This document shows, one piece after another, positions 1,227 through 19,090 of a stretch of DNA of 64,000 nt. The translations under genes and the position numbers were made by a program. The first letter of the stretch is position 1, and the number at the start of each line of letters is the position of its first letter. Where the stretch lies: NCBI GenBank assembly GCA_963768165.1, contig CAVYHJ010000002.1:389067-453066 (forward strand), given 5' to 3'. Source of the stretch: an uncultured bacterium. Lineage in GTDB: Bacteria > UBP4 > UBA4092. The notes beneath the pieces are model-generated. The model saw nothing but the letters and a program-made list of their open reading frames with translations, made no database searches and had not been told where the DNA came from.

Positions 1227-1419
1227 AATTAGAGACCTCGTATACTTAAATCAAGGAATATACATTTCATTAGGGATATTGTACCCCCTCGCGACCTGAT
1301 AATAAATATAGCACGCAATCCCATCCTCCGGCAACTATTTTTAGAGAAAAAGAAAACGGTAGTAGGGAGTGAAGTTTACGACGGAAGAATCACTCGGTAT
1401 GACAGAGAAAGGCATTATA

Positions 1420-1875
1420 TTACTCAAAAATCTCCCATTCTCTCTTCTCAATCCCTGTAGGAACAAGAGGAGCGTATTCTACCGCATTACCGCCTGGATA
1501 CCCGCCTATCACATAAGCAGCAGAGGAGTTTTGTACAACCCCGAATCCCCCATCCCACATTTGTAATCCTGAGGTTAGTTCCCAATTCCCTAAACTTCCA
1601 TCCGGGTTGATGAGGGCTCGTTCGGTTACACTATCTCCTCCCCCGACGGCATTAAGATAAGTACCATCATAATATAAACCTCCTCCATCAGGTGCATCCA
1701 AATCAGCATTGACGGTTGTAAACGCACTCAATTGTCCATCGGGGAAAATAGTCGCTTTTTCTACGCTGTAAAGAGGAAATCCTGCACCATCTTCTCCTCC
1801 AACCACATACAGTGTGGTATTGACTATGATAGCCGAAAGATTATCCCTACCGGTAATTAAACCCAAAATAGTCAT
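1420..1875 (-). pseudogene. C-terminal fragment of a secreted Kelch-repeat beta-propeller gene split by IS insertion
   Basis: 151-aa ORF aligns with C-terminal ~150 aa of the intact paralogs at 4456-5493 and 5942-6976 (LITGRDNLSAIIVNTTLYVVGGEDG... ends EKREWEIFE like KKSEWEIFE/KKRDWEIFD). Confidence 0.8.
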
Positions 1876-3325
1876 TAGGAATCAAGTTTTAAGGATGAAA
1901 GGCCAGCTCATAAGGTCTGCCGAGGACCAAAGACCCGAGAACCAAGTTCGTCTTTTCATGGAAAGGGACAATTTAAGGATCCTTGAATTTCCCTTCTGAA
2001 TCAAATAGCCACCTACCGCAAAAACCTTATAGCGAATGGTTTTTAAAAAGGGCTTGGATGTCCCTCCGAGAAGGGCTTGCCGAAAAAGACTCATCAGATT
2101 ATACGCCAGCATCACGAAATTTAAGGTAGCCTCGGTGGCCCAAAAGTGATGGGTATTAAACCGGTCTGCCCCAAAGTCATACTTTACTTCTTTGATACGG
2201 TTTTCGGCATCGGCCCGATTGCGATACAGGTCATACACCATCTTGGGAGACAAGTCTACATTGGTCACAAAACAACTGTAGCGATACTTCTGGTAGAGGG
2301 TTTCGTCCGAAAACAAACGTAATTGTTTTCCCACCGCCTTGGGACGCTTTTCGATTTCCTGCCGAACCATAATCAGACGTCGGGGAGCCTTCCAGGAATC
2401 GGCTTGATAGAAGGTCTCGGCAATCTCCAATCCCTCGTCCAGTTTTAACCATCCCTTCTGCCGGAGGACCACCGCTTGAAGAGGAGGATAAAACTTGGCC
2501 GCCAGGATATAGGACGTCGGACGATGGGTTTCCAGATACTCCATGATTCTATCGCTGTAGAATCCACTATCCGCTCGAATCAACCCTACACTTTTCCCCT
2601 GAAGCTTGTTTAGGGTATCTTCCAAAAAACCTAAAAAATTATTGGTCGTGTGGCTGTCTCCGGACCGCAGCCAAAAATTAGCCACCATCCGACAATCGGG
2701 AATAAATGCCATCAACGGATGATGCGATTTTCTCCCCCGTTTCTTAGGATTATAGCCCTTCTTGCTCCCTTGCTGTTCCCCATAACGAGTCAGGACCGTG
2801 GAATCAAAATCCAAGGTATAGTTGTCAAAATGTATATTCCGAAAAAACCATTGATATAAATGCGTGAAAACCCGTTGATTGGTGGCTTGCGTAAATTTAT
2901 TGAAATAGCGTGCAAAGGCTTTATTCCCCGCCATCCGTTTCCAATCGAAGATCTCCTTGACCACTTCATCCTGTCGCGTCACTTCCAAATGCTCAAAACA
3001 ATTCGCCCCACACCATACCCCGACCCAAAAGTTCTGGATCAATTGACTGGGACGGTACCCTCGATTAGATCCTTGTTGGGGGAGTGGCGCTTCTTTCAGG
3101 GTCTCCTCCATCTGGATTTGCTCCAGCATCTTCCTCAGGATACTCATCCCACCCCAGGGGGTTATTTCTTTGTCTGTATATTCTATTTTTAGATTCTTCA
3201 TAATGTCCTTTATTCTTACACACCTTGACCCGTTTTTTAACCCCCCTTTGCCCAGGTCTATAGCACTCTATCTATTTAGGTTACCTATCTGTTTCTCTAA
3301 TGACCGCCATTAGAAACTATTGCCC
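1876..3325 (-). mobile_element. IS4-family insertion sequence interrupting the Kelch gene (boundaries approximate)
   Basis: Single 439-aa DDE transposase ORF (1882-3201) lies exactly between the N- and C-terminal halves of one Kelch gene; N-fragment reading frame runs into element-derived sequence and terminates (…SLTQIRQ*). Confidence 0.7.
1882..3201 (-). CDS. DDE transposase, IS4 family-like
   Basis: 439 aa; conserved C-terminal YxxRxxxE-type motif (LYRNRADAENRIKEVK) and overall IS4-like DDE transposase architecture. Confidence 0.7.
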   Translation of the reverse strand: MKNLKIEYTDKEITPWGGMSILRKMLEQIQMEETLKEAPLPQQGSNRGYRPSQLIQNFWVGVWCGANCFEHLEVTRQDEVVKEIFDWKRMAGNKAFARYFNKFTQATNQRVFTHLYQWFFRNIHFDNYTLDFDSTVLTRYGEQQGSKKGYNPKKRGRKSHHPLMAFIPDCRMVANFWLRSGDSHTTNNFLGFLEDTLNKLQGKSVGLIRADSGFYSDRIMEYLETHRPTSYILAAKFYPPLQAVVLRQKGWLKLDEGLEIAETFYQADSWKAPRRLIMVRQEIEKRPKAVGKQLRLFSDETLYQKYRYSCFVTNVDLSPKMVYDLYRNRADAENRIKEVKYDFGADRFNTHHFWATEATLNFVMLAYNLMSLFRQALLGGTSKPFLKTIRYKVFAVGGYLIQKGNSRILKLSLSMKRRTWFSGLWSSADLMSWPFILKT

Positions 3326-4015
3326 CTATTGACGAATTTGGGTTAAACTTGAAGATAATAATGTCCATGTCCCTAAAGATCCATCAGGATTAATAGTTGT
3401 CTGATAAATATTAGGACTCCCTGAAGAAAAACTACTAGGACTTCCTTGATACCCACCAATCACGTAGATAAATTGATTGTACTGAACTAAAGCTGATTCT
3501 CCAAATATCGTAGTAATACCTCCAATCGTCGTCCATACACCGAGAGTACCATTGGAGTTAATAGGTGCTCGTTCAATTGTAGTTAGAACACTAGATGCAT
3601 TTTCTCCCCCTATCGCATAGATATAAGAATCTGTGGCAAATCCTACCGCACCGCCTCGTGCCTCCACCATTTGAGAACTTTCTTCTACCCAAGGACTTAA
3701 TGTCCCATCAGATTGAATGGTGGCACATTCTACAGGATAGGGGGTATTGCTGTAGGGGTAGCCTCCAAAAGTGTAAATAATCGTGCTGCGAGATAAAACG
3801 GCTACATTACTGGAACGGGCTACATTCAAACTACTGGTATAATTCCAAGGACCCATCTGTCCGGCATAAGATGAGATTACCAGAAGAGTAAATAATCCTA
3901 GTAGAACACTGATATAAGATAGGCATCGGGAAAGGCTTTGAAAAGCAAGCCATTCCCGACGCAGATTCAAAACGAGATTACGTCGCTTTGCTCGTAATGA
4001 CAAAACCAATTTCAT
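3326..4015 (-). pseudogene. N-terminal fragment (signal peptide + first Kelch blades) of the IS-disrupted Kelch-repeat gene
   Basis: 229-aa ORF; residues from PWNYTSSLNVARSSNVAVLSRSTIIYTFGGYPYSNTPYPVECATIQ onward align with N-terminal two thirds of neighbouring Kelch paralogs, then diverge to IRQ* at IS junction. Confidence 0.8.
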
Positions 4016-4029
4016 ATCTATAGAGTATA

Positions 4030-4434
4030 TTACTCCGGTTTAATAATGGCTACTATATCTCGCATATAGGGTGGGATAGAAGTGGTCAAGGAAGTAGCCC
4101 CCGTCGTTGTTGTATCGGTTCCTATAACATTCCCTGTGCTGGATTCATACCAAGTGATTTGATACTGTCCTGAAGGAAATCCGTTGATTTGAATCATGGC
4201 ATCGGAGACGGTGCTATATTGTTCTCCCAAAAATCGTTTATCCTGAATTAACCAAAGTAATAGATTCTGGCTGTCCCCAGAATATATAGGAACAATCTCC
4301 CGGTAGGAAGAATCCGATGAAAGTACCGTATAAGTCGTAACCCGTCCAGTGGAATTTTGATTCACCCATTGAGTTAATCCTGCCCAATTAAATTGGTTAA
4401 CAATGGTAGCACGCGCTAGATGATCATTCATCAT
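4030..4434 (-). CDS. orphan copy of the ~125-aa C-terminal module of the giant protein (starts MMNDHLARATI..., ends IVAIIKPE)
   Basis: 134 aa; ~95% identical to ORF 5506-5976 and homologous to last ~140 aa of the 1748-aa protein; separated from upstream Kelch ORF by a single in-frame TAA (EIFE*YNGFDDNMMNDH). Confidence 0.6.
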   Translation of the reverse strand: MMNDHLARATIVNQFNWAGLTQWVNQNSTGRVTTYTVLSSDSSYREIVPIYSGDSQNLLLWLIQDKRFLGEQYSTVSDAMIQINGFPSGQYQITWYESSTGNVIGTDTTTTGATSLTTSIPPYMRDIVAIIKPE

Positions 4435-4455
4435 ATTATCATCGAAGCCATTGTA

Positions 4456-5493
4456 TTACTCAAATATCTCCCATTCGCTTTTTTTAACATCTGTGGTATT
4501 TAGGATTGGAGCGTATTGTACGGTATTAAATTCTCCACCATCAGAGGATGTACCACCAATTACATACGCATCATCTTTTGTTTGCACATATCCAAAAGCT
4601 AAAAGTTCTGTTTGCAGGTAGGGTGCCTCTTCCCATGCATCTAAAGTTCCATCGGTATTGATATTAGCTCTCTCTGAGTAATAGCTGGTAACAAAATAAG
4701 GTGCACCGCCAACTACATTTAGATATTGACCATCATAAAACAAACCACACCCATTATGTGGAACTGTTGTACCTCGTAATGTGGTAAATGCGCTCAATTC
4801 ACCATCCGATGAAATAGTTGCTTTTTCCACATCGTAGATATAACCGTTATTGAACCCACTTACTACATACATAGTAGTATTAATCAAAATTGCGCTCGGC
4901 CCTTCACCAGCTGTTACTAACTGTGATGTAAGTAGTGTCCACGTACCTAATGAACCATCTGGATTGATAATGGTTCGATAAATATAAGGAAGTACGTTGT
5001 ACCCTTGATATCCACTAATGACATAGATATATTGGTTATATTGAATTAATGCCGAATATCCAAAAGATACTGTACATGCCCCAATCGTTGTCCATGTCCC
5101 TAAAGTCCCATCGGAATTAATGGGTGCTCTCTCTATTGTGGTTAATATACTCGAAGCATTCTCTCCACAGATGGCATATACATAGGAATCTGTGGAGAAA
5201 CCTACAGCACCTTGTCTTGCCATAACCATTTGATTGCTTTCGATGGTCCAAGACGTTAAGGTTCCATCGGGTCTAAGGGTTGTATGTTCTACAGGGTAGG
5301 GTGTATTGGTATATGCCAGCCCACCAAAGGTATAAACGATAGTATCCCGTGCGATGACTGCCACATTATCGGAACGTGCTATGTTTAGGCTGCTAGCATA
5401 ACTCCAACTGCCTAAGGTGTAACTGGCAAAAGAATGGGCAGAAATACATATTATTAAAGGAAACAATACATATTTCTGCCAATGAATATTCAC
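4456..5493 (-). CDS. secreted Kelch-repeat beta-propeller protein (paralog 2)
   Basis: 345 aa; N-terminal signal peptide (…LIICISAHSFASYTLG); repeated Kelch-like blades with Y-x-x-GG and W motifs. Confidence 0.75.
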   Translation of the reverse strand: MNIHWQKYVLFPLIICISAHSFASYTLGSWSYASSLNIARSDNVAVIARDTIVYTFGGLAYTNTPYPVEHTTLRPDGTLTSWTIESNQMVMARQGAVGFSTDSYVYAICGENASSILTTIERAPINSDGTLGTWTTIGACTVSFGYSALIQYNQYIYVISGYQGYNVLPYIYRTIINPDGSLGTWTLLTSQLVTAGEGPSAILINTTMYVVSGFNNGYIYDVEKATISSDGELSAFTTLRGTTVPHNGCGLFYDGQYLNVVGGAPYFVTSYYSERANINTDGTLDAWEEAPYLQTELLAFGYVQTKDDAYVIGGTSSDGGEFNTVQYAPILNTTDVKKSEWEIFE

Positions 5494-5505
5494 AAATATA
5501 GTATA

Positions 5506-5976
5506 TTACTCCGGCTTGATAATGGCTACTATATCTCGCATATAGGGTGGGATAGAAGTGGTCAAGGAAGTAGCACCCGTCGTTGTTGAATCGGTTCCTA
5601 TAACATTTCCTGTGCTGGATTCATACCAGGTGATTTGATACTGTCCTGAAGGAAATCCGTTGATTTGAATCATGGCATCGGATACGGTGCTATATTGTTC
5701 CCCTAAAAATCGCTTATCCTGAATCAACCAAAGTAAGAGATTCTCACTATCCCCGGAATATATGGGAACAATCTCTCTGTAGGAAGAATCCACTAAAACT
5801 ACTGTATAAGTCGTAACCCTTCCAGTGGAATTTTGATTCACCCATTGAGTCAATCCTGCCCAATTAAATTGGTTGATAATAGTAGCACGCGCTAAATGGT
5901 CATTCATCATATTATCATCAAAGCCATTGTATCTTTGATTATTAATCAAAAATCTCCCAATCCCTCTTTTTAACAT
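5506..5976 (-). CDS. orphan copy of giant-protein C-terminal module (likely real start at internal ATGATG ~5910)
   Basis: 156-aa ORF, contains conserved junction YNGFDDNMMNDHLARATIINQFNWAG and C-terminus DIVAIIKPE; overlaps 3' end of Kelch 5942-6976 in another frame. Confidence 0.6.
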   Translation of the reverse strand: MLKRGIGRFLINNQRYNGFDDNMMNDHLARATIINQFNWAGLTQWVNQNSTGRVTTYTVVLVDSSYREIVPIYSGDSENLLLWLIQDKRFLGEQYSTVSDAMIQINGFPSGQYQITWYESSTGNVIGTDSTTTGATSLTTSIPPYMRDIVAIIKPE

Positions 5977-6976
5977 CTGTGGTATTCAGGATGGGCGCGT
6001 ATTCAACAACATTGGTATCACAGCATCCACCTATAACATAAGCATCTGTTGAAGTTTGAAGATAAGCAAATCCATCCCGTTCATCCTCTAAATAGGGTGC
6101 GGGTTCCCATGTCCCTAAGCTACCATCTGGATAGACCTGTGCTCGTTCAGAACGATAGTTACCATCTCCACCATAATACCCACCAATCACATTGAGATAC
6201 TCTCCATCGTAAAACAAACCTGGGTCATAATGAAATGCTACTGTATTACTAATTGTTGTAAACGTGCTTAGTTCCCCATCGGTGTATACAGTTGCCAGTT
6301 CAACACCTTTGGTATAACCAGCCACATAGATTGTGGTATTAATTAGGACTGTCGAAAAACTCCTCCTTCCTGTTACCAATTGTGAAGATAACAGAGTCCA
6401 TGTTCCCAATGACCCATCGGGATTAATAGTGGTTTGATAAACGTTTGAACTCCCCAAAGAACCTGTAGTTGTATTAAAATCATAACCTCCAATGATGTAT
6501 ATATAAGTCGAGGTTTGAACCAGCGAAGCCTCTGTAATCCCTGTAGGTAGAATGCTAATCGTAGTCCAAATACCTAGACTCCCATTAGGATTAATTTGTG
6601 CTCGTTCCGCAGTGGTACAATAAGTAACTCCGTTATCGCCACCGATAGCAAAAACATAGGAATCTGTCGCAAATCCAACTGCATCTTCTCTGGCACTTAT
6701 CATTTGAGTGCTTTCAATTACCCAATTGCTTAAGGTTCCATCAAGTTGAATTGTGGCACATTCCACAGGATAAGGAGTTGTCGTATAAGCATACCCCCCA
6801 AAAGTATAAATAATAGTACTCTGGGATAAAACTGCCACGTTGACAGAACGTGCCACATTTAAACTACTGGTATAATTCCAATTGCCTAATGTGTAGCTGG
6901 CAAACGAATGGGTAGAAATACAAATAATAAAAAACAACAAGAGGTAACGCTGTCGTTGAATTCTCATACATATCAA
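5942..6976 (-). CDS. secreted Kelch-repeat beta-propeller protein (paralog 1)
   Basis: 344 aa; signal peptide (…FFIICISTHSFASYTLG); ~55-65% identical to paralog 2 across Kelch blades. Confidence 0.75.
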   Translation of the reverse strand: MICMRIQRQRYLLLFFIICISTHSFASYTLGNWNYTSSLNVARSVNVAVLSQSTIIYTFGGYAYTTTPYPVECATIQLDGTLSNWVIESTQMISAREDAVGFATDSYVFAIGGDNGVTYCTTAERAQINPNGSLGIWTTISILPTGITEASLVQTSTYIYIIGGYDFNTTTGSLGSSNVYQTTINPDGSLGTWTLLSSQLVTGRRSFSTVLINTTIYVAGYTKGVELATVYTDGELSTFTTISNTVAFHYDPGLFYDGEYLNVIGGYYGGDGNYRSERAQVYPDGSLGTWEPAPYLEDERDGFAYLQTSTDAYVIGGCCDTNVVEYAPILNTTDVKKRDWEIFD

Positions 6977-6981
6977 GTATA

Positions 6982-9900
6982 TTACTCTGGCTTAATAATG
7001 GCTACTATATCTCGGAAGAACGTGGGGATAGGAGTGCTTTCCACATCCGTATAGGAATTCCATGTTAGATTAACAGTTGTAGACACACTAACTCCGGTGG
7101 TCGAATTATACCAAGTCAGTTGATAACTTCCCGGTGGAAAAGCGGATATCTGCATGTAGGTATTGGCAAGTGGGGGCGGAGTTTGATATAAAGAGCGGGA
7201 ATCCTGTATTAACCAAATCAATAAGTTTTGACTATCTCCTGAATAAATGGGAACAATACTCTCTGAAGAAGTACCTGAAAACGAAATCCGTCCCGTTGAT
7301 CCATTCTGATTCACCCATTGCGTAATTCCCGCCCAATTAAACTGATTAATAATAGTAGCACGCGCTAAATGGTCATTCATCATATTATCATCAAAGCCAT
7401 TGTATTCGTTTAAGTAGGGAGGTTCATTTACATAATAAGGTGGAAGTGTAGTATATTGGGTTAAATAAGTGACATTCCCAGGAAAGGTTGATGCAAATTT
7501 ATTATTAACATACATCCCATAATGATACCCTTCACCCGCGGCACCACTGGCAATATTCGCCCAACCCATAAAATGAAAATATTCATCATAGAGATTCTCG
7601 TTGATATGACGGTCTACCAGATTGACGGCACTCGCGGACAGTCCTGTTGCATTATCATAGGTGGTATCCCCCCAATACTGTGGACTTAATGTCCAAGGTC
7701 CTTCATAATCTCCCGGTCCCATGAAGGTACAGATATAAGGTTTGGAAGAGGTCTCCATACTAAAAGCCAATTTAATAGTTTGAAACATATCTATTCCCGC
7801 TTCAATACACGCCGAATCAATTAGATATTGAGGGGATGTCGCGTCATACCAATTGGAACCGGGACCAGCAGTTGTAGCCTGTATCCAGAGCGGAAAGCTG
7901 ATAGGCAATGTCGTCACGACACCATACGGAGCGGTCGTAACTGTCACATAGACCGGATGGGTCGCTACCACATCCAACAAGGGATGCTGGAAATAAATGG
8001 GTTTAGTATAAGCTGTAGAATTCCCGGTATTGACCGCTGATAGAGGAACCGCAATATCCAATCCTTGAGACTTTGCATACATGGGTCGTATTCTAGCTGT
8101 AGGATAATCAATATCCGATCCGATGGGTCCGGGATTGGAGGCTCCTGACGACACACTCACAATATGTCCATGTCCCCATTTTTGGAGTTCATAATTTTTG
8201 ATGAACCCGGCAATCTGGGTGACCCAGTTTTCTTTGATACTATCATTCACAGCAGATGTGGTTGAAATATCCCCGATATAATTAAGTTCCGGCATTGGAT
8301 CCCACAGAACGATTCCCGCCCGGTCTCCCCAGTGGTCAATATAATACTGCAAGGTGGTTTCTGCAGTAATGATGGCGGTCTGTTCACTCAGAACCTGTCC
8401 CGGTGAAGTCACCGAACCGTATAATATGTTGGAACCACTATACCAAAAATTATATTGTGACCGTGGATTGGCTGCCACCCAATTGGCAGAATCGGGTGCG
8501 ACTCCCGAAAGCGTAAAGATTCCCAACCAATAGGTCATTTGATATTTATCCAGTTCATTCAAATGTTGATCCATCCATATCGCCGTTGCATCGCTAAAAA
8601 TTGTATTTCCGGTAGAATCGTGCGTTTCTACGGTATACCACGTCGTAACATTATCAGGATAACCATAAGGACTTGGTGGATTTTCAAAAAATCCCCGTGC
8701 CATGCTGTTAAACCCATGTGCTTTCGCCCATGCCAAATAATTATCCTCTTGCGGTAATGAAAGATTATCTTGATATTCTATAATAGGGTACTTGGCGCTA
8801 AATCCCATCGGGAAGTAGGGAGTACCGTCTTCGTATTCAAAAAGCCTGCCATTCTGGGCTACTTCAATAAACCCCCGATCAAGGTAATGGTACCCAATAT
8901 TAACAGTTCCACTGTCTAACGTTTGATTGGTAGCGGTACTGCCATAAGCACGGACAGTGGTGTCTCCTGAATGAACCAGAGGACTGGTACCTAGATGATT
9001 ATATGAACTCTGTACCAACCCGTTACTGTCATAGTTCATGGCATACCAGGCATCTTCATATATTCCTGTCATGCCGGTGTTTACACGATAACTGCTGCCA
9101 TCCAAGGCCGCCCAATACCACACTTGGCCTTCGTACACCGAAACCTTGGGGAGACACACCTGGTTGGAATTACTGCCAAACAGCAGGGTAATCGAATCGG
9201 TTGAACAGATGGTCCACCCATTCGCACCAGCGCTCAGGGTGATTAAGATATTTCCCAGTCCGGAACCGGTGGATGTATACGACCAACCACCCCCATTCAA
9301 CGTTGTAGCATACCCCAGTTGCGTACTCCCGCTCAATCCGTTGGCATAGGAAGATATCGTGATCTTGACACCTCTTGGAGGTGTACTGGCAAACGAATAA
9401 GACATCCCTGACACGCCACTAATTTGCAGAGGGAACCGGCTGGCGTCCCCAGTCGTCGAGGCCAGGTAATATCCGTCAAAGGACCCGCTCCCGCTATTGG
9501 CAAATTGGGGATTAGCGGTAATGAGATTGCTATTGGTCGGGTCACCGCTATAGTCCAAGGTATTGTTGTATAGATTATTATTTGTAACAGTCCCTTCAAT
9601 ATATCCAGATGTTAAATATATTCCGGTAGAGAATCTAGAGACTATGTTATTTCGTATATCCACATTACTGGTAATATTTGTAGTCGCTACCCCATAAATT
9701 CCATACCAACCCGATCCATTCCCTACTAGCGTATTATTACGAAGGATAGCATTGTCATTGGAAGAGGAGATTGTCCATAGCAAAATCTGGTACTGGTTGT
9801 TATTTCCCGCGAGAAACAGATTATTCTCTGCTCGAACATAGGAATCCACAGCCGCAATCCCGTCCCGACAATCATAGAAAACATTATCGTTAATCCGATG

Positions 9901-12228
9901 ATAGAGAACGGTTCCTGAATCTAAATCAATCCCTGCGGCGGCATACCTGAAAATACAATTCTGAATGATACTATTGGGACCTAAATTTTGACCGATTTCA
10001 ATACCAATAAAGTAACTATACAAACCATCGGCTCCCAAAGGGTGGGTCATCATATCCCCGGTCGCATAAATGGTATTAAATTCAATCCGGTTATTGGCAT
10101 GACCGTGAGCAATAATATTGGCGTAATTCCAGCTAAATAATTGTGAGATATTCGCTGAGACACTACGCCAAAAAGAAACCACCACACCCGGTAAGATAGT
10201 CAAGGTCGCACTATCCACACCACTCGTTCCAATTGTTAAAGTAGAATATGTACCGGAATTACCCACCACGACATCTACGGGGTCATAGTGATACCCAATA
10301 TCCACAATTCCCGTATTGCGAGGAACTTCCGACCACGTGGTGCTGGCGGTGATGGTGTTGGGCGCTTGAACCGGCGCAACTGTGGTCTTGTTTTGTAATC
10401 CATAATATGCGGCTGTGGTATCCCCTGCGCTAGTAGCCCCACTGACCGAAGGATTCAGATAATATGAACCATTGGCTGAAGTTGCATAAGGATTCGTATT
10501 GATTGACCCTTCTCCAGTGTTTTGACCGATAGAACCATAATAATTGGAATAATCTTGATAAAATTTGTTATAGGAATGTGCGTTCCCAAATCCGTTTACC
10601 GCGCTCAATCCGTAAAAACAGTTGGTGATTAAATTATTACGGCAATCGACAAAGGCACCGTTATATCCGAGGATGCCATTACCCGTACCTGCGCCATCCA
10701 CTGTATTATTCAGTGCCACCACATAGGCCACTGTATCATTGGCTATCGCATAAATTCCTGTAGGGAAAGAAATATATCGGGAGCCTGAATAGATGAGATT
10801 ATTCATTACGGTAATCCGACTATTGGTTCCGTTGAGGGATAAATATATTCCATTGGTAGAACATTGTTGGATGATATTATTTTGGATAGGGGTATTGAGA
10901 TTCGTGTAAATATCCAATCCATCGGTGGCATAGGCGATCTTACAATATTGAATCTGGCTACTGGCTGAAGCCCCTGATTGCAGAGAAATGGCGGTCCCGT
11001 AATCTCCACCTGTCGCTGTGCTGAAAGTGGTACTCACCGAATCACCCATTGTGGTATCTTTCCAACTGGTGAAGAGGACGTAATCGAAAGTGGTTCCAAC
11101 AGAAAGAATTTTTGCACCGGAAGGGACCGTAATCGAAGCACCGGAAGTATATTTACAGACCGTCCCTCCTTCAATCACCAAGGTCCACGGAGCACTAAGG
11201 GTATAGGTTCCACTGAGATAATAGGTATTCCCTGATTTCCAGACTTGATTACCCGTTTGTGTGCCTGTTTTAATGTTGTAATCCAAAGTAACCGGAAAGG
11301 AAGCCGATACCAAAAAACTATAAGGAATTCCCTCGACCAAATATGTGTGACCATTTTGTTGGTAGAGAAATTTGTACATCGTGATGGATTGTTTTACAGG
11401 ACTACTGTCAAAGGCGGGACTTTGCGCAACGTAACAGAGAGCTTGACCAGTTGAGGCATCCGCAAAATAAAAATCTTTTCCTTCACCGGACAGAAAACCG
11501 GATTGCAGTGTTTGTCCGGTATAATCCTGAATAGAACAGGCAAAAATCGAGGTGTCTATTTCGGTAACACTCACCAAATAAGCGGTTCGGGGATCCATTT
11601 GATAATGGCTGGGAGAAGGTAATGCTTGAAGACTTCTTACTATCAAGTTTTGTTGAAAAGAACCTTTGCCATAACAAAAAGACAAATCTATTCCCGGAAA
11701 GATATTGGTATAGGTCAAAGTATTGCCTTGGAGAGTGGGAGGAACCGCATTAATCGCACCCAGAGGTTGAAGGGTATTATTACCTTTATCGTAAAAAGCC
11801 AAATACCGCAAGCCCAATTGCATGATTTTCCCATTCACCGTATAACCAATCGGCCATTGGGTATCTAATCCAGCGCCGAATTGGATTTGATAAGGACCTT
11901 GCAGAGCTTGATAGGTTCCATTTTCGGTGGATTGAATACTCTCGACCGATACCTGCCAATTGTTGGCCGTATCCTGGAAACATAACCCATCGGCTTTTTC
12001 TGTTACAAAACGAGTAACCGTTACCTGGGACATCGCCATCGTTGTAACATCAACATCATCCACGACTTTTTGTATTTGCCAGACACGGGTGTTGGCGTTT
12101 CTCCCAGAAACGATTTCTGTGGGACTTCCTGCGGGTGGCGTACTTCCAACTACGCTGGCGATGGAAAAAGTGCACAGCGTCAACAAACATAAAATAAAAA
12201 AGCACGTTCTCTTACTGGATGTAGTCAT
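6982..12228 (-). CDS. giant secreted protein (1748 aa) with signal peptide, right-handed parallel beta-helix repeats, a glycoside-hydrolase-like barrel and the shared ~125-aa C-terminal module
   Basis: Signal peptide MTTSSKRTCFFILCLLTLCTFSIASVVG; many PbH1-type repeats (NNLIYSGSRYISF…, NNLITNCFYGLSAV…, NNTLVGNGSGWYGIYG…); GH-like segment (NGRLFEYEDGTPYFPMGF…); C-terminal …NEYNGFDDNMMNDHLARATIINQFNWAGITQW…DIVAIIKPE. Confidence 0.75.
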   Translation of the reverse strand: MTTSSKRTCFFILCLLTLCTFSIASVVGSTPPAGSPTEIVSGRNANTRVWQIQKVVDDVDVTTMAMSQVTVTRFVTEKADGLCFQDTANNWQVSVESIQSTENGTYQALQGPYQIQFGAGLDTQWPIGYTVNGKIMQLGLRYLAFYDKGNNTLQPLGAINAVPPTLQGNTLTYTNIFPGIDLSFCYGKGSFQQNLIVRSLQALPSPSHYQMDPRTAYLVSVTEIDTSIFACSIQDYTGQTLQSGFLSGEGKDFYFADASTGQALCYVAQSPAFDSSPVKQSITMYKFLYQQNGHTYLVEGIPYSFLVSASFPVTLDYNIKTGTQTGNQVWKSGNTYYLSGTYTLSAPWTLVIEGGTVCKYTSGASITVPSGAKILSVGTTFDYVLFTSWKDTTMGDSVSTTFSTATGGDYGTAISLQSGASASSQIQYCKIAYATDGLDIYTNLNTPIQNNIIQQCSTNGIYLSLNGTNSRITVMNNLIYSGSRYISFPTGIYAIANDTVAYVVALNNTVDGAGTGNGILGYNGAFVDCRNNLITNCFYGLSAVNGFGNAHSYNKFYQDYSNYYGSIGQNTGEGSINTNPYATSANGSYYLNPSVSGATSAGDTTAAYYGLQNKTTVAPVQAPNTITASTTWSEVPRNTGIVDIGYHYDPVDVVVGNSGTYSTLTIGTSGVDSATLTILPGVVVSFWRSVSANISQLFSWNYANIIAHGHANNRIEFNTIYATGDMMTHPLGADGLYSYFIGIEIGQNLGPNSIIQNCIFRYAAAGIDLDSGTVLYHRINDNVFYDCRDGIAAVDSYVRAENNLFLAGNNNQYQILLWTISSSNDNAILRNNTLVGNGSGWYGIYGVATTNITSNVDIRNNIVSRFSTGIYLTSGYIEGTVTNNNLYNNTLDYSGDPTNSNLITANPQFANSGSGSFDGYYLASTTGDASRFPLQISGVSGMSYSFASTPPRGVKITISSYANGLSGSTQLGYATTLNGGGWSYTSTGSGLGNILITLSAGANGWTICSTDSITLLFGSNSNQVCLPKVSVYEGQVWYWAALDGSSYRVNTGMTGIYEDAWYAMNYDSNGLVQSSYNHLGTSPLVHSGDTTVRAYGSTATNQTLDSGTVNIGYHYLDRGFIEVAQNGRLFEYEDGTPYFPMGFSAKYPIIEYQDNLSLPQEDNYLAWAKAHGFNSMARGFFENPPSPYGYPDNVTTWYTVETHDSTGNTIFSDATAIWMDQHLNELDKYQMTYWLGIFTLSGVAPDSANWVAANPRSQYNFWYSGSNILYGSVTSPGQVLSEQTAIITAETTLQYYIDHWGDRAGIVLWDPMPELNYIGDISTTSAVNDSIKENWVTQIAGFIKNYELQKWGHGHIVSVSSGASNPGPIGSDIDYPTARIRPMYAKSQGLDIAVPLSAVNTGNSTAYTKPIYFQHPLLDVVATHPVYVTVTTAPYGVVTTLPISFPLWIQATTAGPGSNWYDATSPQYLIDSACIEAGIDMFQTIKLAFSMETSSKPYICTFMGPGDYEGPWTLSPQYWGDTTYDNATGLSASAVNLVDRHINENLYDEYFHFMGWANIASGAAGEGYHYGMYVNNKFASTFPGNVTYLTQYTTLPPYYVNEPPYLNEYNGFDDNMMNDHLARATIINQFNWAGITQWVNQNGSTGRISFSGTSSESIVPIYSGDSQNLLIWLIQDSRSLYQTPPPLANTYMQISAFPPGSYQLTWYNSTTGVSVSTTVNLTWNSYTDVESTPIPTFFRDIVAIIKPE

Positions 12229-12272: not shown

Positions 12273-12300
12273 ATTATAAACCCAATTTCGATTCTGTCAA
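12273..12300 (-). promoter_or_regulatory. candidate sigma-70 promoter for the giant-protein/Kelch gene string
   Basis: On minus strand: TTGACA (12295-12300) - 17/18 nt - TATAAT (12273-12278), ~45 nt upstream of ATG 12228 which is preceded by GAGGG. Confidence 0.45.
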
Positions 12301-12929: not shown

Positions 12930-14219
12930 TTGACAAAAATATTCTTATACTTAATTATCACCCTGCCTGTATCTTTATTCCTGGTATCTTGTGGACAGAA
13001 AATCTCGACACAGAATAATATCGTTACCCTCCGGTTTGCCACCTGGGCTAGTGAAGATGAGGCTCCCCAGGAAAGAAAAATATTCGATGCTTTTGAAAAG
13101 ACCCATCCGAATATTAAGATAAAGGTGGTCTATTCACCCTATAATAATTTCTCGGAAAAAGTCCTTACCCTGACGGTTGGCGGGATTCCACCCGATGTCA
13201 TGTGGCTGAGAGATTTACCAACGTATGCCTCCCGAAATATCATCCGGGATATTACAGACCTTGTATATCATGACCCTTCCATTGATACTTCCAAATATTT
13301 CCCTCACGCCCTGGAAAAATGTTCCTATCGGGGAAGACTGTATGCCATGCCGAGGGATGTCTGTTGTTCTTTTTATGCCTATAACAGAAAGATGTTCGAT
13401 GAAGCACATCTCCCTTATCCTTCAGAAAATTGGACCTGGGACGATTTCCTTTATGATTGTAAAAAATTAACCAAAATTAAAAATGGCCGGGTGGTTCGAT
13501 TCGGCACTTCCTGGTTTTCGTTTAACGATGTGGCCAGCCAAAACGGCGGCGCGCAACTTAGCCCCGATGGGAAAGAATGCTGGATTACCAAACCTGAGTT
13601 CTATGAAGGTATCCAATGGTGGGAAGATTTGGCTCTTAAATATCATGTGGCTCCTAAAGGGTCTGAACTGGGCGGGATTGGCGGTGACCTTTTCCAAAAC
13701 CAGATTTGTGCGACGGCGGTCACTGGCCCATGGATGTTTGCCGCGTATCATAAAAATCTCAAATTCCCTTATGATATTGTTAATTTCCCCAAAGGAAAAG
13801 CCGGAAAGAAAACAGCTTTGTTATGTTTACCTATTGCCATCTCCACCAAAACCCCCTACTCCAAAGAAGCGTATGAACTCCTTAAATTCCTAACCTATAG
13901 TGAAGAAGCCCAATCTCTCCAGGCAAAACTGGGGCTCGCAACCCCCTCCCGAAAAGACCTGGCAATGTCCGATACTTATAAAAAACTGGAAATTATGCCA
14001 CCCCATGTGGATCTTTACCTGAAGTCTCTCCTGGAACAAACCTATGTCATGGGTGCTTATACTTATAGCCTGTCGGTTGAAGACCAGGTCAATGCCGCTC
14101 TCGAAATTGCCGGACTCGGTACCGTTAGTGTTCAACAAGCCATGGAATTGAAAAAACCACTCATTGATAAAATTATCCGAAAAGCTGTCATCCGAGACCA
14201 ACGTCTTGAACATTCTTAA
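12930..14219 (+). CDS. ABC transporter solute-binding lipoprotein (family 1, carbohydrate), paralog 1
   Basis: 429 aa; lipoprotein signal with LVSC lipobox; conserved sugar-SBP blocks shared with the next two ORFs (LTVGGIPPD…, ALPRDVCC…FYAYN…, WTWDDFL…LTK…GR…FG). Confidence 0.8.
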   Translation: MTKIFLYLIITLPVSLFLVSCGQKISTQNNIVTLRFATWASEDEAPQERKIFDAFEKTHPNIKIKVVYSPYNNFSEKVLTLTVGGIPPDVMWLRDLPTYASRNIIRDITDLVYHDPSIDTSKYFPHALEKCSYRGRLYAMPRDVCCSFYAYNRKMFDEAHLPYPSENWTWDDFLYDCKKLTKIKNGRVVRFGTSWFSFNDVASQNGGAQLSPDGKECWITKPEFYEGIQWWEDLALKYHVAPKGSELGGIGGDLFQNQICATAVTGPWMFAAYHKNLKFPYDIVNFPKGKAGKKTALLCLPIAISTKTPYSKEAYELLKFLTYSEEAQSLQAKLGLATPSRKDLAMSDTYKKLEIMPPHVDLYLKSLLEQTYVMGAYTYSLSVEDQVNAALEIAGLGTVSVQQAMELKKPLIDKIIRKAVIRDQRLEHS

Positions 14220-14240
14220 TAAGGAGTAAATATTTTTCCT

Positions 14241-15560
14241 ATGATATCGTTATCAAGAAAACAAAAAAAGAATTTACAATCTCTCATACTTCTTCTCATT
14301 ATCAATCTATTATTGGCATCCTGTACTTCTACCAAGATGGATAACCAGGACGATGTCACTCTCCAGTTCTGCACTTTTAATGGCGGGGAGAATTTCCAAT
14401 GGGACCAAAAAATTCTTGATAAATTTATGGAACTCCATCCCCATATTAAAGTTAAAAATCTCTATGCCCCTTGGGGAAGTTATACGGAAAAAGTACTGGT
14501 ATTAACCGTCGGCGGCATTTCCCCGGATGTTCTGTGGACTATTTCAGGAGATTTGCCTTTTTATGCCTCCCGGAATGTCATCATGGATTTAACGGATTTG
14601 GTCTATAAAGACCCGAGTATCGATACCAGTAAATATTTCCCCAACGCCTTAAATCTCTGCTCTTATAAAGGGAGACTATTTGCACTACCCCGGGATGTTT
14701 GTTGTTTATTTTATGTCTATAACAAAGACATGTTTGATAAAGACAAAGTCTCTTATCCCGATACCCAATGGACTTGGGATGATTTCCTGGCTATCACTAA
14801 AAAATTAACCAAAACCCAAAATGGCCGGATTGTTCAATTCGGGACAGGAAGCGGCAGCGGCGTTGCCTATTATTGGGACGATGTCGTTCATGAAAATAAT
14901 GCTGCTCCCCTCAGTCCTGACGGGAGAGAATCTTGGGTTACCCGACCGGAGTTCTATGAACCCATTCAATGGTGGCTTAATTTGTATCTCATTCATCATG
15001 TGGCACCTTCCTCCTCTGAAGCATCAGGGTTTGGTGGGGATTTATTTCAAAATGGTAAGGTTGCTACATCGATGACCGGACCATGGATTTTTACCGGGTA
15101 TAAAAGAGATCTTAAGTTTCGATACGATATTGTCAACATCCCTAGAGGTAAATATGGGAATAAAGTCAGCCTCCTAGGGTTGCCCATTGCTATCTCCAAA
15201 TATACCAAACACCCCAAAGAAGCGTACGAATTATTAAAGTTCTTAACCTATAGTGATATCGCGCAAACTATGCAAGCCCAAATGGGTATAGGTATGCCCT
15301 CCCGAAAAGATATAGCCATGTCCGATGTCTATTTGAAACAACCGGTCATACCTGAACATGTCAATCTCTATATGAAATCCATGTTGGAATATACCTATGT
15401 CCCCGATTCTCTCCCATATGCCAAACAGATTTATGACCAGATTAATGCGGGCATTGAACTAGCTCAACTGGGGAAAATGTCCGTCAAAGATGCCATGCAA
15501 CTCAAACAACCAATCATTCAGAAAATTATCAATAAATCTATAAAGAAAGGTGAACTCTAA
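14241..15560 (+). CDS. ABC transporter solute-binding lipoprotein, paralog 2
   Basis: 439 aa; signal + LASC lipobox; same conserved blocks as paralog 1. Confidence 0.8.
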   Translation: MISLSRKQKKNLQSLILLLIINLLLASCTSTKMDNQDDVTLQFCTFNGGENFQWDQKILDKFMELHPHIKVKNLYAPWGSYTEKVLVLTVGGISPDVLWTISGDLPFYASRNVIMDLTDLVYKDPSIDTSKYFPNALNLCSYKGRLFALPRDVCCLFYVYNKDMFDKDKVSYPDTQWTWDDFLAITKKLTKTQNGRIVQFGTGSGSGVAYYWDDVVHENNAAPLSPDGRESWVTRPEFYEPIQWWLNLYLIHHVAPSSSEASGFGGDLFQNGKVATSMTGPWIFTGYKRDLKFRYDIVNIPRGKYGNKVSLLGLPIAISKYTKHPKEAYELLKFLTYSDIAQTMQAQMGIGMPSRKDIAMSDVYLKQPVIPEHVNLYMKSMLEYTYVPDSLPYAKQIYDQINAGIELAQLGKMSVKDAMQLKQPIIQKIINKSIKKGEL

Positions 15561-15965
15561 ATTTATACCGGATAGTTTAAAATCCCAATGATAAATCAAT
15601 GGGTTATTTTCAGTCGTCCTTACAGGACTATAAACCCAATGATAAATCCCGTGCGCGGGAATGACGGTACAATTGAAAATATCATTTGTATTTCTTGAAT
15701 ATCTCCATTATAATAACCGCATTACAATCAATTGATTGAAATAGAAAATGATTTGTAATAAATCTGTTCGATTGGTGGTCTTTCATTCGAGAAGTTGAAA
15801 TCTTAAGTTCTTAGGCTGATATTTTGATTCACATCCCGACAGTATAAAATTCATTTCCTTAAATTGTCGTTAACAATCCAAGATACTCATTAACTGATTA
15901 TCATGTAAACTAAATTTTCTTGAACTCCGGTACATTATGAATGTTATAAAGATGATGGTTTAAGC

Positions 15966-17276
15966 TTGTTATCCATGTTAAAAGTTCTTTTCAAAAGCAT
16001 ACTAATTCTTTCTTTGGGATTGATTCTCGAATCCTGTGCCACGGAACAAACAGCCGATGATAATGTAATAACTCTGCGGATTTCAACCTGGGCCAGCAGC
16101 GGTGATTCTCCTCAGGAAATACAAATCTTTAAAGCCTATGAAGCCTCCCATCCTAATATTCGGATTAAAAATGTATACACCCCCTGGACAAATTATACGG
16201 AAAAAAACCTCGTTTTAACCGTAGGAGGTATTGCTCCAGACCTTATCTGGATGATTCCCACGGATCTCCCATCTTATGCCTCCCGCAATGTCATTATGGA
16301 TTTGACCCAGCAGGTGAGTAATGACCCGGAGATAGATACCACTAATTATTTCCCCCATGCCTTGGATCTTTGTTCTTACAAAGGAAGAATCTATGGTCTT
16401 CCGCGGGATGTTTGCTGTTGGTTCTATGCCTATAATAAAAGATTATTTGATGAATCGCATGTTCCTTATCCTACCGGTGATTGGACGTGGGATGATTTCC
16501 TTAAAACCTGTTCCAAACTCACCAAAGATAAACATCATTCCGGACATATTGACCAATTCGGAACAGCCTGGTGGTCTTATAATGACGCGGTGCGACAAAA
16601 CGGGGGTCAAGAACTTAGTCCCGATGGAACCCAATGTTGGATTACCAAACCGGAATTCTATGAGGCTATCCAATGGTGGGTCAATTTGGCTCTCAAATAT
16701 CATGTCGCCCCCAAAGGCTCCGAAATATCCGGGTTTGGCGGGGATTTATTCCAAAACCAGGTCAGTGCCATGACCCTGGCCGGTCCCTGGGTGTTTTCTA
16801 CGTATAAGAAAAATTTGAAGTTCCCTTATGATATTGTCAATTTACCCCGGGGGAAAGCTGGAAACAAAGCCATGTTATTGGGATTACCCATTGCTATTTC
16901 TACAAAAACCAAACATGCCAAAGAAGCCTATGATTTCTTAAAATTCTTAACCTATAGTAAAGAAGCTCAATCCCTTCAAGCCCAATTGGGGGTTGGAACA
17001 CCCTCCCGAAAAGATATGGCGATGTCTGATATCTATGTCAAACAACCAATCAATCCCAAACATATTGATTTATATCTTAAATCTATGATGGAATATACCT
17101 TTGTCCCGGAAGGGTTTACTTATTCCAAACTGGTGGGTGACCAAATCAATGCGGCTATTGAATATGCTCAATTGGGGGAAATGACTGCTAAACAAGCGAT
17201 GGAATTAAAAAAACCGTTTATCGATAAAATTATCCAAAAAGCCATAGAAAGGAATAAACACTTTGAAAAATCCTAA
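15966..17276 (+). CDS. ABC transporter solute-binding lipoprotein, paralog 3 (start TTG 15966 or ATG 15975)
   Basis: 436 aa; signal + LESC lipobox; paralogous to the two upstream SBPs. Confidence 0.8.
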   Translation: MLSMLKVLFKSILILSLGLILESCATEQTADDNVITLRISTWASSGDSPQEIQIFKAYEASHPNIRIKNVYTPWTNYTEKNLVLTVGGIAPDLIWMIPTDLPSYASRNVIMDLTQQVSNDPEIDTTNYFPHALDLCSYKGRIYGLPRDVCCWFYAYNKRLFDESHVPYPTGDWTWDDFLKTCSKLTKDKHHSGHIDQFGTAWWSYNDAVRQNGGQELSPDGTQCWITKPEFYEAIQWWVNLALKYHVAPKGSEISGFGGDLFQNQVSAMTLAGPWVFSTYKKNLKFPYDIVNLPRGKAGNKAMLLGLPIAISTKTKHAKEAYDFLKFLTYSKEAQSLQAQLGVGTPSRKDMAMSDIYVKQPINPKHIDLYLKSMMEYTFVPEGFTYSKLVGDQINAAIEYAQLGEMTAKQAMELKKPFIDKIIQKAIERNKHFEKS

Positions 17277-18186
17277 AAAGAAATCCTATTCAATTACCCG
17301 GCAGGAAACTATTGCCTGTTACCTGTTTATCTCACCCTGTATATTGGGCCTGCTCATTTTTACCCTGGGTCCCATGATTGCCTCATTTATTATTTCCTTT
17401 ACCGACTGGGATATTTTGACTCACCCCACTTGGATTGGTTTTGATAACTTTAGAGAAATATTTACCGATGACCCTACCTTCTATCACTCGTTGAAAAATA
17501 CCTTCTACCTGACTGCATTTTCAGTCCCCTTGGGTTTGGTCGGCTCTTTTCTTATGGCACTGTTATTAAATAATAAAGTACGCGGGATATCTTTTTTCCG
17601 AACGGCATTTTATCTCCCGGCCATTGTTCCAGCAGTCGCCAGTTCTATGTTATGGCTCTGGATACTCCAACCGGATTTCGGTTTACTCAATTCTTTCCTC
17701 CATTTTCTTCATTTACCCACTCCGGGCTGGATGGCTGACCCGGCTTGGTCTAAACCGGCTATCATTATCATGGGATTGTGGGGGATTGGAGGCGGTATGA
17801 TTATTTACCTGGCAGGGCTGCAGGGCATCTCCGAACAACTCTATGAAGCCGCTTCCATTGACGGGGCTAATGCCTGGCACCGGTTCTGGCATATTACCAT
17901 TCCGCAAATGTCTCCGGTTATCTTCTTTAACTTGATTGTCGGAGTTATTGGCGCTTTGCAGGTATTCACCCAGGCTTTCATTATGTCCAACGGTCTTGGC
18001 GGCCCGGCGGAATCTACACTATTTTATGTGTTCTATATTTATAACAAAGCCTTCCGGGAATTCCAGATGGGGTATGCCTGTGCTCTGGCGTGGATACTCT
18101 TTGTGATTGTGCTCATCATAACACTGATTCAATTTAAATTTATCGGTAAACGTGTCTATTATGAATATGGAACTGACATAAAATAA
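17263..18186 (+). CDS. ABC sugar transporter permease (MalF/UgpA-like)
   Basis: 307 aa, 6 TM; EAA-loop region EAASIDGANAWHRFWHITIP; 14-nt overlap with SBP3 stop. Confidence 0.8.
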   Translation: MKNPKKKSYSITRQETIACYLFISPCILGLLIFTLGPMIASFIISFTDWDILTHPTWIGFDNFREIFTDDPTFYHSLKNTFYLTAFSVPLGLVGSFLMALLLNNKVRGISFFRTAFYLPAIVPAVASSMLWLWILQPDFGLLNSFLHFLHLPTPGWMADPAWSKPAIIIMGLWGIGGGMIIYLAGLQGISEQLYEAASIDGANAWHRFWHITIPQMSPVIFFNLIVGVIGALQVFTQAFIMSNGLGGPAESTLFYVFYIYNKAFREFQMGYACALAWILFVIVLIITLIQFKFIGKRVYYEYGTDIK

Positions 18187-18208
18187 TTCTCTAAAAGGAC
18201 TTATATCC

Positions 18209-19090
18209 ATGACATCTAAATTATCCAAATTTTTTGTTCTACTCCTACTCATCGTAGGCTCAATAATTTTTATTTTCCCTTTTGTCTGGCTGGTTTCCAC
18301 TTCTTTCAAAGCCTCCGAGGATGTTTTGGCATTCCCTCCCACACTTATCCCACGACCCTGGGTCTGGACTAATTATGGGGACGCCATCCGAGCTCTATCC
18401 GACGACCCTAATATCCCCTTGACTCTGCATAATATCATCCATTTACCCATGGTCCAGTTTACTATTAACACCCTTAAGATTGTTATCTTTAATATGATTG
18501 GGACTATCTTTACTGCAGCTTTGTGTGCTTATGGTTTTGCCCGGTTGAGAGCTCCGGGAAAAGGAATTATCTTTACTTTTCTATTATCCACCATGATGCT
18601 GCCCCCGCAAGTCACCATGATCCCGGTCTTTATCATGTTCCAGAAGTTTGGCTGGATAAATACCTTTAAACCTTTGATCATCCCGGCTTACTTTGGCGGA
18701 GGCGCTTTTAATATCTTTTTATTACGCCAATTTTTTATGACTCTTCCCAAAGAATTGGAAGAAGCAGCCATTGTGGATGGTTCTTCCCGGTTACGTATAT
18801 TCTGGCAGATTTTTCTCCCTCTTTCCAAACCGGCCTTGTTAACTGTTTTAGTTTTTTGTTTTCTGGGATTATGGAATGATTTTGTTGGCCCCTTGATTTA
18901 TTTGCAAGATGTCGAGAAATTCACCCTGGCTATTGGATTAAACCTGTTCCGGGGCATGTATGCCACCAAAACCCCCTGGGGTCCTTTAATGGCAGCATCC
19001 ACCCTGATGACCTTACCTATTATTATCATATTCTTTGTTTGCCAGAGATATTTTATCCAGGGTATCGCCTTAACGGGAACTAAAGGATAA
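18209..19090 (+). CDS. ABC sugar transporter permease (MalG/UgpE-like)
   Basis: 293 aa; EEAAIVDGSSRLRIFWQIFLPLSKPAL EAA motif. Confidence 0.8.
   Translation: MTSKLSKFFVLLLLIVGSIIFIFPFVWLVSTSFKASEDVLAFPPTLIPRPWVWTNYGDAIRALSDDPNIPLTLHNIIHLPMVQFTINTLKIVIFNMIGTIFTAALCAYGFARLRAPGKGIIFTFLLSTMMLPPQVTMIPVFIMFQKFGWINTFKPLIIPAYFGGGAFNIFLLRQFFMTLPKELEEAAIVDGSSRLRIFWQIFLPLSKPALLTVLVFCFLGLWNDFVGPLIYLQDVEKFTLAIGLNLFRGMYATKTPWGPLMAASTLMTLPIIIIFFVCQRYFIQGIALTGTKG

Follow-up and report, generated by a model that had tools for sequence, protein, structure and literature searches.

A tandem array of partial gene copies with silent-cassette-like features in an uncultured bacterium of lineage UBP4

Within a 64,000-nucleotide stretch of DNA from an uncultured bacterium (GTDB lineage Bacteria; UBP4; UBA4092; GenBank assembly GCA_963768165.1, contig CAVYHJ010000002.1, positions 389,067 to 453,066 of the forward strand; hereafter, the window), the minus strand between positions 1420 and 12228 carries an array that reads, in order, a giant gene for a protein of 1748 amino acids, a first Kelch gene (Kelch1), a short open reading frame (ORF) termed orphan 1, a second Kelch gene (Kelch2), orphan 2, and a third Kelch gene (Kelch3) that is split by an insertion sequence (IS; Table 1). 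Each orphan is a free copy of the C-terminal domain of the giant protein, referred to here as the module. A preliminary description, made from the letters and a list of ORFs, had proposed this gene order and strand and had placed each of the two short module copies directly after a secreted Kelch gene; both proposals are confirmed by the ORF coordinates and by alignment. Judged from its sequence, the array is best described as an old tandem repeat of the last domain of the giant protein together with the Kelch gene downstream of it, and its orphan modules bear the marks of both purifying selection and gene conversion. We give even chances to the explanation that the orphans act as spares for the C-terminal domain of the giant protein and are exchanged by homologous recombination.

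The repeated unit, a module with the Kelch gene that follows it, is about 1.48 kb long and occurs in three head-to-tail copies in a three-way DNA alignment; its left edge is a domain boundary inside the giant gene and its right edge lies just beyond the Kelch stop codon. The two orphans, previously put at about 95% identity, differ at 32 of 423 nucleotides (92.4% nucleotide and 96% amino acid identity), and each is open over 141 codons. Of these differences, 25 are synonymous and seven are non-synonymous, giving a synonymous divergence (dS) of 0.33, a non-synonymous divergence (dN) of 0.022 and a dN/dS ratio of about 0.07; the synonymous excess relative to the neutral ratio has a binomial p of 3e-11. 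A comparable pattern is seen with the two orphan modules of an array from a diverged metagenomic lineage (L006), where dS is 0.78 and dN 0.13 (ratio 0.17; p 9e-11). These comparisons of codons show the orphan modules to be kept, evidently as intact coding sequence, by purifying selection.

The similarity of the two orphans does not extend to the genes around them. Between the second and third units, high identity runs from the junction at the start of the module to just past its stop codon, and the adjoining Kelch genes share about 60% DNA identity; Kelch2 and Kelch3 are separated by a dS of 2.8 and are 59% identical in amino acids, although the modules that precede them are 96% identical. Conversion appears to be patchy in the L006 array, where dS is 0.26 over the first 70 codons of the modules and 1.8 over the remainder. 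Such a distribution of differences shows gene conversion that is, by all appearances, confined to the module, the orphans having been homogenised over exactly that segment. A 5' junction of about 60 nucleotides had been proposed earlier as common to all copies; an exact 57-nucleotide identity does link the giant gene with orphan 1, and five of the 57 positions are different in orphan 2. The tract covers 9.3 synonymous sites; were synonymous differences as frequent there as in the module core, its identity would arise by chance with a probability of about 1e-4, and it is therefore attributed to recent exchange and not to constraint alone. Beyond the tract, the module core of the giant gene is remote from the orphans (dS >1.3, dN 0.45), the amino acid identity of the whole module to the orphans being 58-59% by tblastn, such that this genome holds two module types, G in the giant protein and O in the orphans. 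Taken together, the 57-nucleotide tract, the module-limited conversion and the selection indicate that recombination is ongoing and that the coding value of the orphans is retained.

The spare-domain explanation is favored because the orphans lack a signal peptide, a Shine-Dalgarno sequence and a promoter, and yet they share both flanks with the giant gene and convert one another. The sole strong promoter match for the array, TTGACA-16-TATAAT, lies before the giant gene; other promoter scans and the terminator scans of the array remained at background level, with no convincing terminator inside it, and for the orphans themselves neither a strong promoter nor a signal peptide nor a Shine-Dalgarno match was found. 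Given their low dN/dS, the orphans must either be functional in place or descend from, or pass repeatedly through, an expressed copy of like type. Since the expressed G module is so distant from the orphans, this second route implies that the module at the expressed site is replaced. On the spare-domain reading, the copies still recombine, through the shared junction where the module begins and through the shared last-strand and stop region where it ends. At the junction, unequal crossing-over would remove a unit or add one; loss of the G module and Kelch1 in this manner would fuse an O-type sandwich to the giant protein, and the reciprocal product would resemble L001, a contig from another assembly of essentially the same organism that reads the 3' end of Kelch1 (100% identity), the junction, a G-type core and the 5' end of Kelch1 (99.9%). 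The order seen in L001 is possibly the duplication product expected of such an event. Conversion between both flanks would place an O-type core on the giant gene or a G type into an orphan slot with the copy number unchanged, and either crossing-over or conversion would also alter the number of Kelch genes and which of them follows the giant gene. That exchange really occurs at the expressed gene, and that it is the target of selection, is the step that we infer.

The nature of the exchanged domain was addressed by homology and by structure prediction. Homology among the copies spans 140 amino acids from the sequence YNGFDD; the module had been described as about 125 amino acids at the end of the giant protein, and its position stands while its length does not. 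An AlphaFold model of the module (predicted local distance difference test score, pLDDT, 75) comprises one helix followed by an eight-strand beta-sandwich. The best structural match is the C-terminal sandwich of ManDH5 (E 1.6e-5), a mannanase of glycoside hydrolase (GH) family GH5, and the next best are the C-terminal domains of GH29, GH66, GH39, GH44, GH140 and GH30 enzymes; in this model, the junction stretch maps to the interdomain helix of the hydrolase unit. Scans of the module against Pfam, NCBIfam and PADLOC, toxin and defence families included, returned no match. By sequence homology and modeled fold, the module is the usual beta-sandwich found at the C-terminus of two-domain units of clan GH-A, and neither a toxin nor a sorting signal. 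Of the two natures suggested for it previously, therefore, that of a carbohydrate-enzyme sandwich agrees with the fold matches to GH C-terminal domains and that of a sorting domain is abandoned: a type IX secretion sorting domain was considered and rejected, there being no Por_Secre_tail-type match in NCBIfam or Pfam with the giant protein or the tested orphan, and the domain is internal in one relative (P0014).

Upstream of the module, the giant protein consists of a signal peptide, right-handed beta-helix repeats and a GH5/GH140-like TIM barrel. No Pfam glycoside hydrolase model was reached by the protein, its C-terminal 637 amino acids returned nothing in a word-index homology search, and the same 637 amino acids, module included, gave chance-level matches only against PDB sequences. 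An exhaustive HMMER search with phmmer found 72 relatives of this region. The full-length relatives are proteins of 480-720 amino acids with the Pfam domains Cellulase (PF00150, GH5), Apiosidase (PF13204, GH140) or DUF5060, and they terminate in the same domain, with a common last-strand motif [FY]x[RK]DI[AV]xI that corresponds to RDIVAIIKPE in the window. In a further relative, P0044 (86 amino acids), the C-terminal half of the module follows immediately on a barrel fragment, YEIQKFGRKHLVSISSGLANP, as though an internal deletion had taken place in a related organism. Modeled with AlphaFold (predicted template modelling score, pTM, 0.81), the last 638 amino acids of the giant protein have ManDH5 (E 3e-19) and the GH140 enzyme BT_1012 (E 3e-13) as full-length matches, and they also match the structures 3kzs, 4qfu and 8t9w. 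The acid/base Glu of strand 4 is kept in the barrel (WDPMPE) and the His of strand 6 is present. The nucleophile column of the motif PYxD[ST]ExGP, on the other hand, reads PYICTFMGP in the giant protein, with Phe in place of Glu (about 7723-7725, minus strand); at this position P0004 has Leu and P0008 Phe, these two being the closest relatives, and more distant relatives keep Glu. With its nucleophile replaced, the barrel, although GH-like in fold and descent, is unlikely to be active as a retaining hydrolase, and it probably functions as a binding module or in some other non-hydrolytic manner.

The family-wide occurrence of the last-strand motif also bears on the 3' end that is common to all three module copies, as claimed earlier and confirmed by DNA alignment (CGAGATATAGTAGCCATTAT[TC]AA[GA]CC[AG]GAGTAATATACT). 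Because this motif is family-wide, the conservation of the 3' end is ascribed mainly to protein constraint, and between the module of the giant gene and the orphans three synonymous differences remain in the last 12 codons. Two further features lie in this segment. The end of the module holds a weak promoter-like sequence, TAGCCA-17-TATACT (9/12 consensus positions), at 6976-7004, 5500-5528 and 4024-4052 (minus strand), the strength of which is of background frequency, and a GGAG or CAGAG is located 17-21 nucleotides before each Kelch start, inside the conserved module end. These promoter-like and GGAG-type signals may add a constraint at the DNA level to the 3' flank.

The layout of the locus, with 3' fragments that carry the junction of a main gene and are each followed by another gene, had suggested a polymorphic toxin locus in which the module would be the C-terminal toxin, the Kelch protein its immunity partner, and the orphan pairs would lie downstream. 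This layout is all that speaks for it. The module is a GH-type beta-sandwich that ends ordinary hydrolases of 480-720 amino acids; no toxin, delivery-domain or defence family was matched, and nothing other than Beta_helix and NosD repeats turned up where a delivery region or pre-toxin junction motif would be expected in the giant protein. At about 345 amino acids, the Kelch proteins are large, and they are secreted; with 96%-identical modules preceding Kelch genes that are only 59% identical, there is no pattern of cognate pairs. A toxin locus is considered extremely unlikely, and the signature reported in the preliminary description is withdrawn, the module copies being homologous to one another and their partners not co-varying with them.

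The antiquity of the triplication follows from the Kelch genes, the pairwise dS of which is saturated (1.7-2.8, with dN of about 0.33), and from the distance of the giant's module from the orphans. The three Kelch proteins are 57-59% identical in amino acids, within the range of about 55-65% given previously. Their assignment as propellers is supported by Pfam Kelch family matches, partly above and partly below the curated cut-offs, and by matches in PDB sequences to the propellers of KLHL12 and KLHL20 (E 4e-9). Spacers between the ORFs of the array are 0-25 nucleotides in length, and tblastn located no further copies of the module, Kelch gene or barrel elsewhere in the window. Readings of the array as an integron or a diversity-generating retroelement were rejected, as the spacers are too short for recombination sites and no reverse transcriptase was present among the genes examined. 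At and directly behind the stop codon of Kelch3, which has no module after it, a 15-mer (TAATATAATGCCTTT) matches the first 15 nucleotides of the module junction at 13 bases in a hand alignment; it may be the microhomology from which the first duplication started or, alternatively, what is left of a fourth module since lost.

Given this anatomy, the array could be a passive by-product of a tandem segmental duplication that cut the giant gene, in which functionless orphans are repeatedly overwritten by conversion from the selected, expressed copy and owe their low dN/dS to it. The junction-like 15-mer is in keeping with such an origin, as is the clustering of modules by genome rather than by array position, which concerted evolution predicts, and giant genes are broken in several relatives. 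Overwriting from the expressed copy is difficult to reconcile with the divergence of the G module from the orphans, which would require an expressed O-type copy as the source; furthermore, arrays are retained in three diverged lineages and neither orphan has lost its reading frame. A purely passive origin is thus regarded as unlikely.

Arrays of the form Kelch-module-Kelch recur in two other, diverged metagenomic lineages, L006 and L010; L006 reads Kelch end, module, Kelch, module, Kelch start, and the order of module then Kelch is kept in the diverged relatives L002/L003, L004, L005, L008 and L009. The recurrence of such arrays in other lineages is evident from these contigs, most of the related contigs being 0.7-2.8 kb in length. 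Species-representative genomes scanned twice with module and Kelch profiles yielded no relative, an exact look-up of orphan 2 (P0001) retrieved no contig, and in two scans of JGI metagenome contigs a single distant Kelch locus, L007, was recovered. In two runs, Logan unitigs match the window at 100% identity and break inside the 57-nucleotide repeat, and hence they are uninformative on connectivity. One Logan run, ERR11523654 (L008, L011-L012), contains both the organism of the window, as 100% identical unitigs, and a relative with a giant gene of about 68% DNA identity; related lineages with this locus therefore co-occur in one sample. Homologs of the giant gene are broken by frameshifts in L004 (5301-10474), L005 (5476-11806, where the Kelch gene is also affected), L008 (1-2586) and L009 (1-669). 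Judging by the contig names, which point to long-read assembly for L004 and L005, the many frameshifts in two long related contigs may be sequencing errors, decay and phase variation being the other candidate causes, and the broken giant genes in relatives are consequently not safely interpretable. In L002 and L003, from a relative with about 70% DNA identity, positions of about 1-70 encode a barrel-like end, YYVNFISKEYNPLDDKMFND, followed by an in-frame TAA and immediately by a TTG and an O-type module; the module there is a separate ORF, and the junction sequence is identical in the two independent assemblies.

Several of these observations weigh against the spare-domain explanation. The repertoire is tiny, with two module types and two donors that are 96% identical, and conversion would have only short stretches of homology to work with (about 57-100 nucleotides on the 5' side and about 45 nucleotides on the 3' side). 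Protein constraint, perhaps with the translation signals of the Kelch genes, accounts for the conserved 3' flank, and recombination need not be invoked for it. None of the contigs found carries an O-type module joined to the giant protein of this species, and L001 may be a low-coverage assembly chimera formed through the exact 57-nucleotide repeat. Separate module ORFs directly behind a barrel (L002, L003 and, by frameshift, L009) fit a free-standing protein as well as they fit decay. The cassette exchange proposed in the preliminary description is supported in part: the module-limited conversion, the 57-nucleotide tract and the purifying selection speak for it, and the conserved 3' end, being mainly protein constraint, and the presence of two module types only do not. 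The fullest version of the spare-domain explanation is a domain-swap system, conserved in at least three diverged lineages, in which silent sandwich cassettes are maintained by selection together with Kelch genes and swapped onto a giant beta-helix/pseudo-glycosidase, the surface or binding properties of which would thereby change; this is offered tentatively, as a possibility that we rather doubt.

Alternatively, the orphans may be genuine genes for separate proteins of about 134-150 amino acids, translated by coupling to the upstream Kelch gene as two-gene units, starting at a TTG 5 nucleotides before the Kelch stop codon or at an ATG shortly after it, and acting alone or with a partner, with no need for exchange with the giant gene. 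The purifying selection on orphans in two lineages is accommodated directly by this proposal, and gene callers list orphan 2 (P0001) and a 134-amino-acid cluster member (P0084), both on one 1.26-Mb contig, as proteins, as they do P0040, P0076, P0065 and P0077. Without exception, the orphans adjoin or overlap the stop codon of the ORF before them, and by our own reading of the sequences a TTG in the module frame occupies the same place at Kelch1/orphan 1 and at both L006 junctions; the TAA followed at once by TTG behind the barrel-like sequence of L002 and L003 has the same character. Against this, orphans devoid of a signal peptide would yield a cytoplasmic product, whereas the homologous domain of the giant protein and the Kelch proteins are exported, and the missing Shine-Dalgarno match is likewise unfavorable. 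The frame relative to Kelch is not kept: the orphan 1 ORF overlaps the end of Kelch1 in the +1 frame, its module being set off from the Kelch1 stop codon by a 10-nucleotide spacer, and the homology of orphan 2 opens at the codon immediately after the TAA of Kelch2 and in frame with it. In L010, the first in-frame start codon cuts off the conserved helix. Moreover, we know of no precedent for a free-standing C-terminal sandwich of a glycoside hydrolase. Separate translation, the chief rival of the spare-domain explanation, is accordingly judged possible but doubtful.

The same junctions have a bearing on whether recoding, by a +1 frameshift at the Kelch stop codon or by read-through, could generate a secreted Kelch-module fusion as in galactose oxidase. 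A single TAA interrupts the frame that Kelch2 and orphan 2 share, and the module lies in the +1 frame at the Kelch1/orphan 1 junction, at both L006 junctions and at that of L010; two different mechanisms would therefore be required at one locus. No slippery or known +1 shift site is present at the stop codons, and an Rfam scan of the window detected nothing, and hence no recoding element or riboswitch. Constant fusion of the module to Kelch genes in relatives, which the preliminary description would have taken as a sign of decay, was not observed: all complete Kelch ends seen, in the window and in relatives, stop at the same conserved C-terminus, and the last Kelch gene of the window lacks a module altogether. 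Recoding is considered highly unlikely.

Table 1. Features of the array and their positions in the window.
Feature	Position	Strand	Remarks
Promoter-like site TTGACA-16-TATAAT	12273..12300	(-)	12/12 consensus positions; 45 nt upstream of giant ATG
Giant gene	6982..12228	(-)	ORF, 1748 aa, secreted
Junction repeat in giant gene	7349..7405	(-)	57 nt exactly equal to 5876-5932 of orphan 1
G module (last 140 aa of giant protein)	6982..7404	(-)	YNGFDD...RDIVAIIKPE plus stop codon
Kelch1	5942..6976	(-)	Secreted Kelch beta-propeller paralog, 341-344 aa by start codon chosen
Orphan module 1 ORF	5506..5976	(-)	ATG at 5976; homology to giant begins 5931/5932
Kelch2	4456..5493	(-)	Secreted Kelch beta-propeller paralog, 345 aa
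Orphan module 2	4030..4455	(-)	First ATG at 4434 (ORF 4434..4030)
Kelch3, N-terminal part	3348..4015	(-)	Upstream of IS insertion
IS1380-family insertion sequence	1857..3347	(-)	Transposase gene 1882-3201
Kelch3, C-terminal part	1420..1856	(-)	In-frame continuation of 3348-4015
15-mer TAATATAATGCCTTT	1408..1422	(-)	At/directly past Kelch3 stop; hand alignment

The IS that had been recognized earlier as splitting the last Kelch gene belongs, by its transposase, to the IS1380 family. It has 18-nucleotide inverted repeats, which lie inside 1857-1879 and 3325-3347, and is flanked by a 5-nucleotide target duplication, TTAAA, at 1857-1861 and 3343-3347; removal of the element and one copy of the duplication restores the Kelch3 reading frame. 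IS1380-like transposases at least 90% identical to that of the window were found on five further contigs (ENA, JGI and Logan), and a second transposase gene (DDE_Tnp_1 and DUF772) is located 10 kb from the array at 21983-22960 (plus strand). Divergent from the giant gene, the region 12930-19090 (plus strand) encodes three paralogous solute-binding proteins of sugar ATP-binding cassette (ABC) systems (429, 439 and 436 amino acids) and contains two permease genes, and the locus thus sits in a carbohydrate-uptake neighborhood. Elsewhere in the window, further carbohydrate-related content comprises genes for a 652-amino-acid protein matching GH10 (59646-61604, minus strand) and for O-mannosyltransferase-like/TPR proteins (34769-36382 and 48273-50432).

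If exchange of the sandwich does take place, cassette-type variation would extend from the surface antigens of pathogens and the tips of toxins to a carbohydrate-enzyme-like protein of an environmental bacterium, and the part swapped would be a structural accessory domain. If the orphans are instead translated alone, they would constitute a free-standing form of a domain otherwise known only within glycoside hydrolases. On either reading, the locus offers a clean natural case of partial-gene copies under selection at the protein level.

Four kinds of known system invite comparison. With two-domain hydrolases of clan GH-A, represented by ManDH5 (PDB 9gpa/9gpe), the GH140 apiosidase BT_1012 (5msy), 3kzs, 4qfu and 8t9w, the end of the giant protein shares its modeled barrel and sandwich, and the module alone matches their C-terminal domain; the unit differs in that it ends a 1748-amino-acid beta-helix protein, has Phe for the nucleophile Glu, and is accompanied downstream by two extra, free copies of the sandwich. 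Polymorphic toxin loci (CdiA-CT/CdiI, Rhs) likewise present a main gene and 3' fragments that share its junction, each with a partner gene behind it, but the locus here has no toxin fold, delivery domain or small immunity protein, its modules are mutually homologous and its partners do not co-vary; a toxin-like layout can evidently result from plain tandem duplication. Ordinary tandem duplication with concerted evolution would account for the head-to-tail repeats, the junction-like 15-mer at the end of the array and the patchy conversion tracts, whereas the copies here are partial genes on which purifying selection is strong, and diverged lineages have kept similar arrays.

The fourth comparison is with silent-cassette systems. 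Neisseria pilE/pilS and Borrelia vlsE are systems in which silent cassettes are used for gene conversion. Another is msp2/p44 of Anaplasma, the silent copies of which have been termed functional pseudogenes (PMC11946796). These systems resemble the present array in that truncated copies devoid of promoters, with ends that are conserved and a middle that varies, lie close to one expressed gene, remain open and recombine by segmental conversion; as expected of donors, the orphans have no expression signals of their own and have their 5' junction and 3' end in common with the giant gene. A diverse repertoire is not found here, there being only two donors, 96% identical and interleaved with intact Kelch genes; the part that varies is an enzyme accessory domain and no known antigen, and no transfer into the expressed gene was observed outright, the 57-nucleotide tract and the possibly chimeric L001 being the observations that bear on it. 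By analogy, the locus may be viewed as a tandem partial-gene array with silent-cassette-like behavior, and of the systems compared, it would appear to work most like those of silent-cassette conversion.

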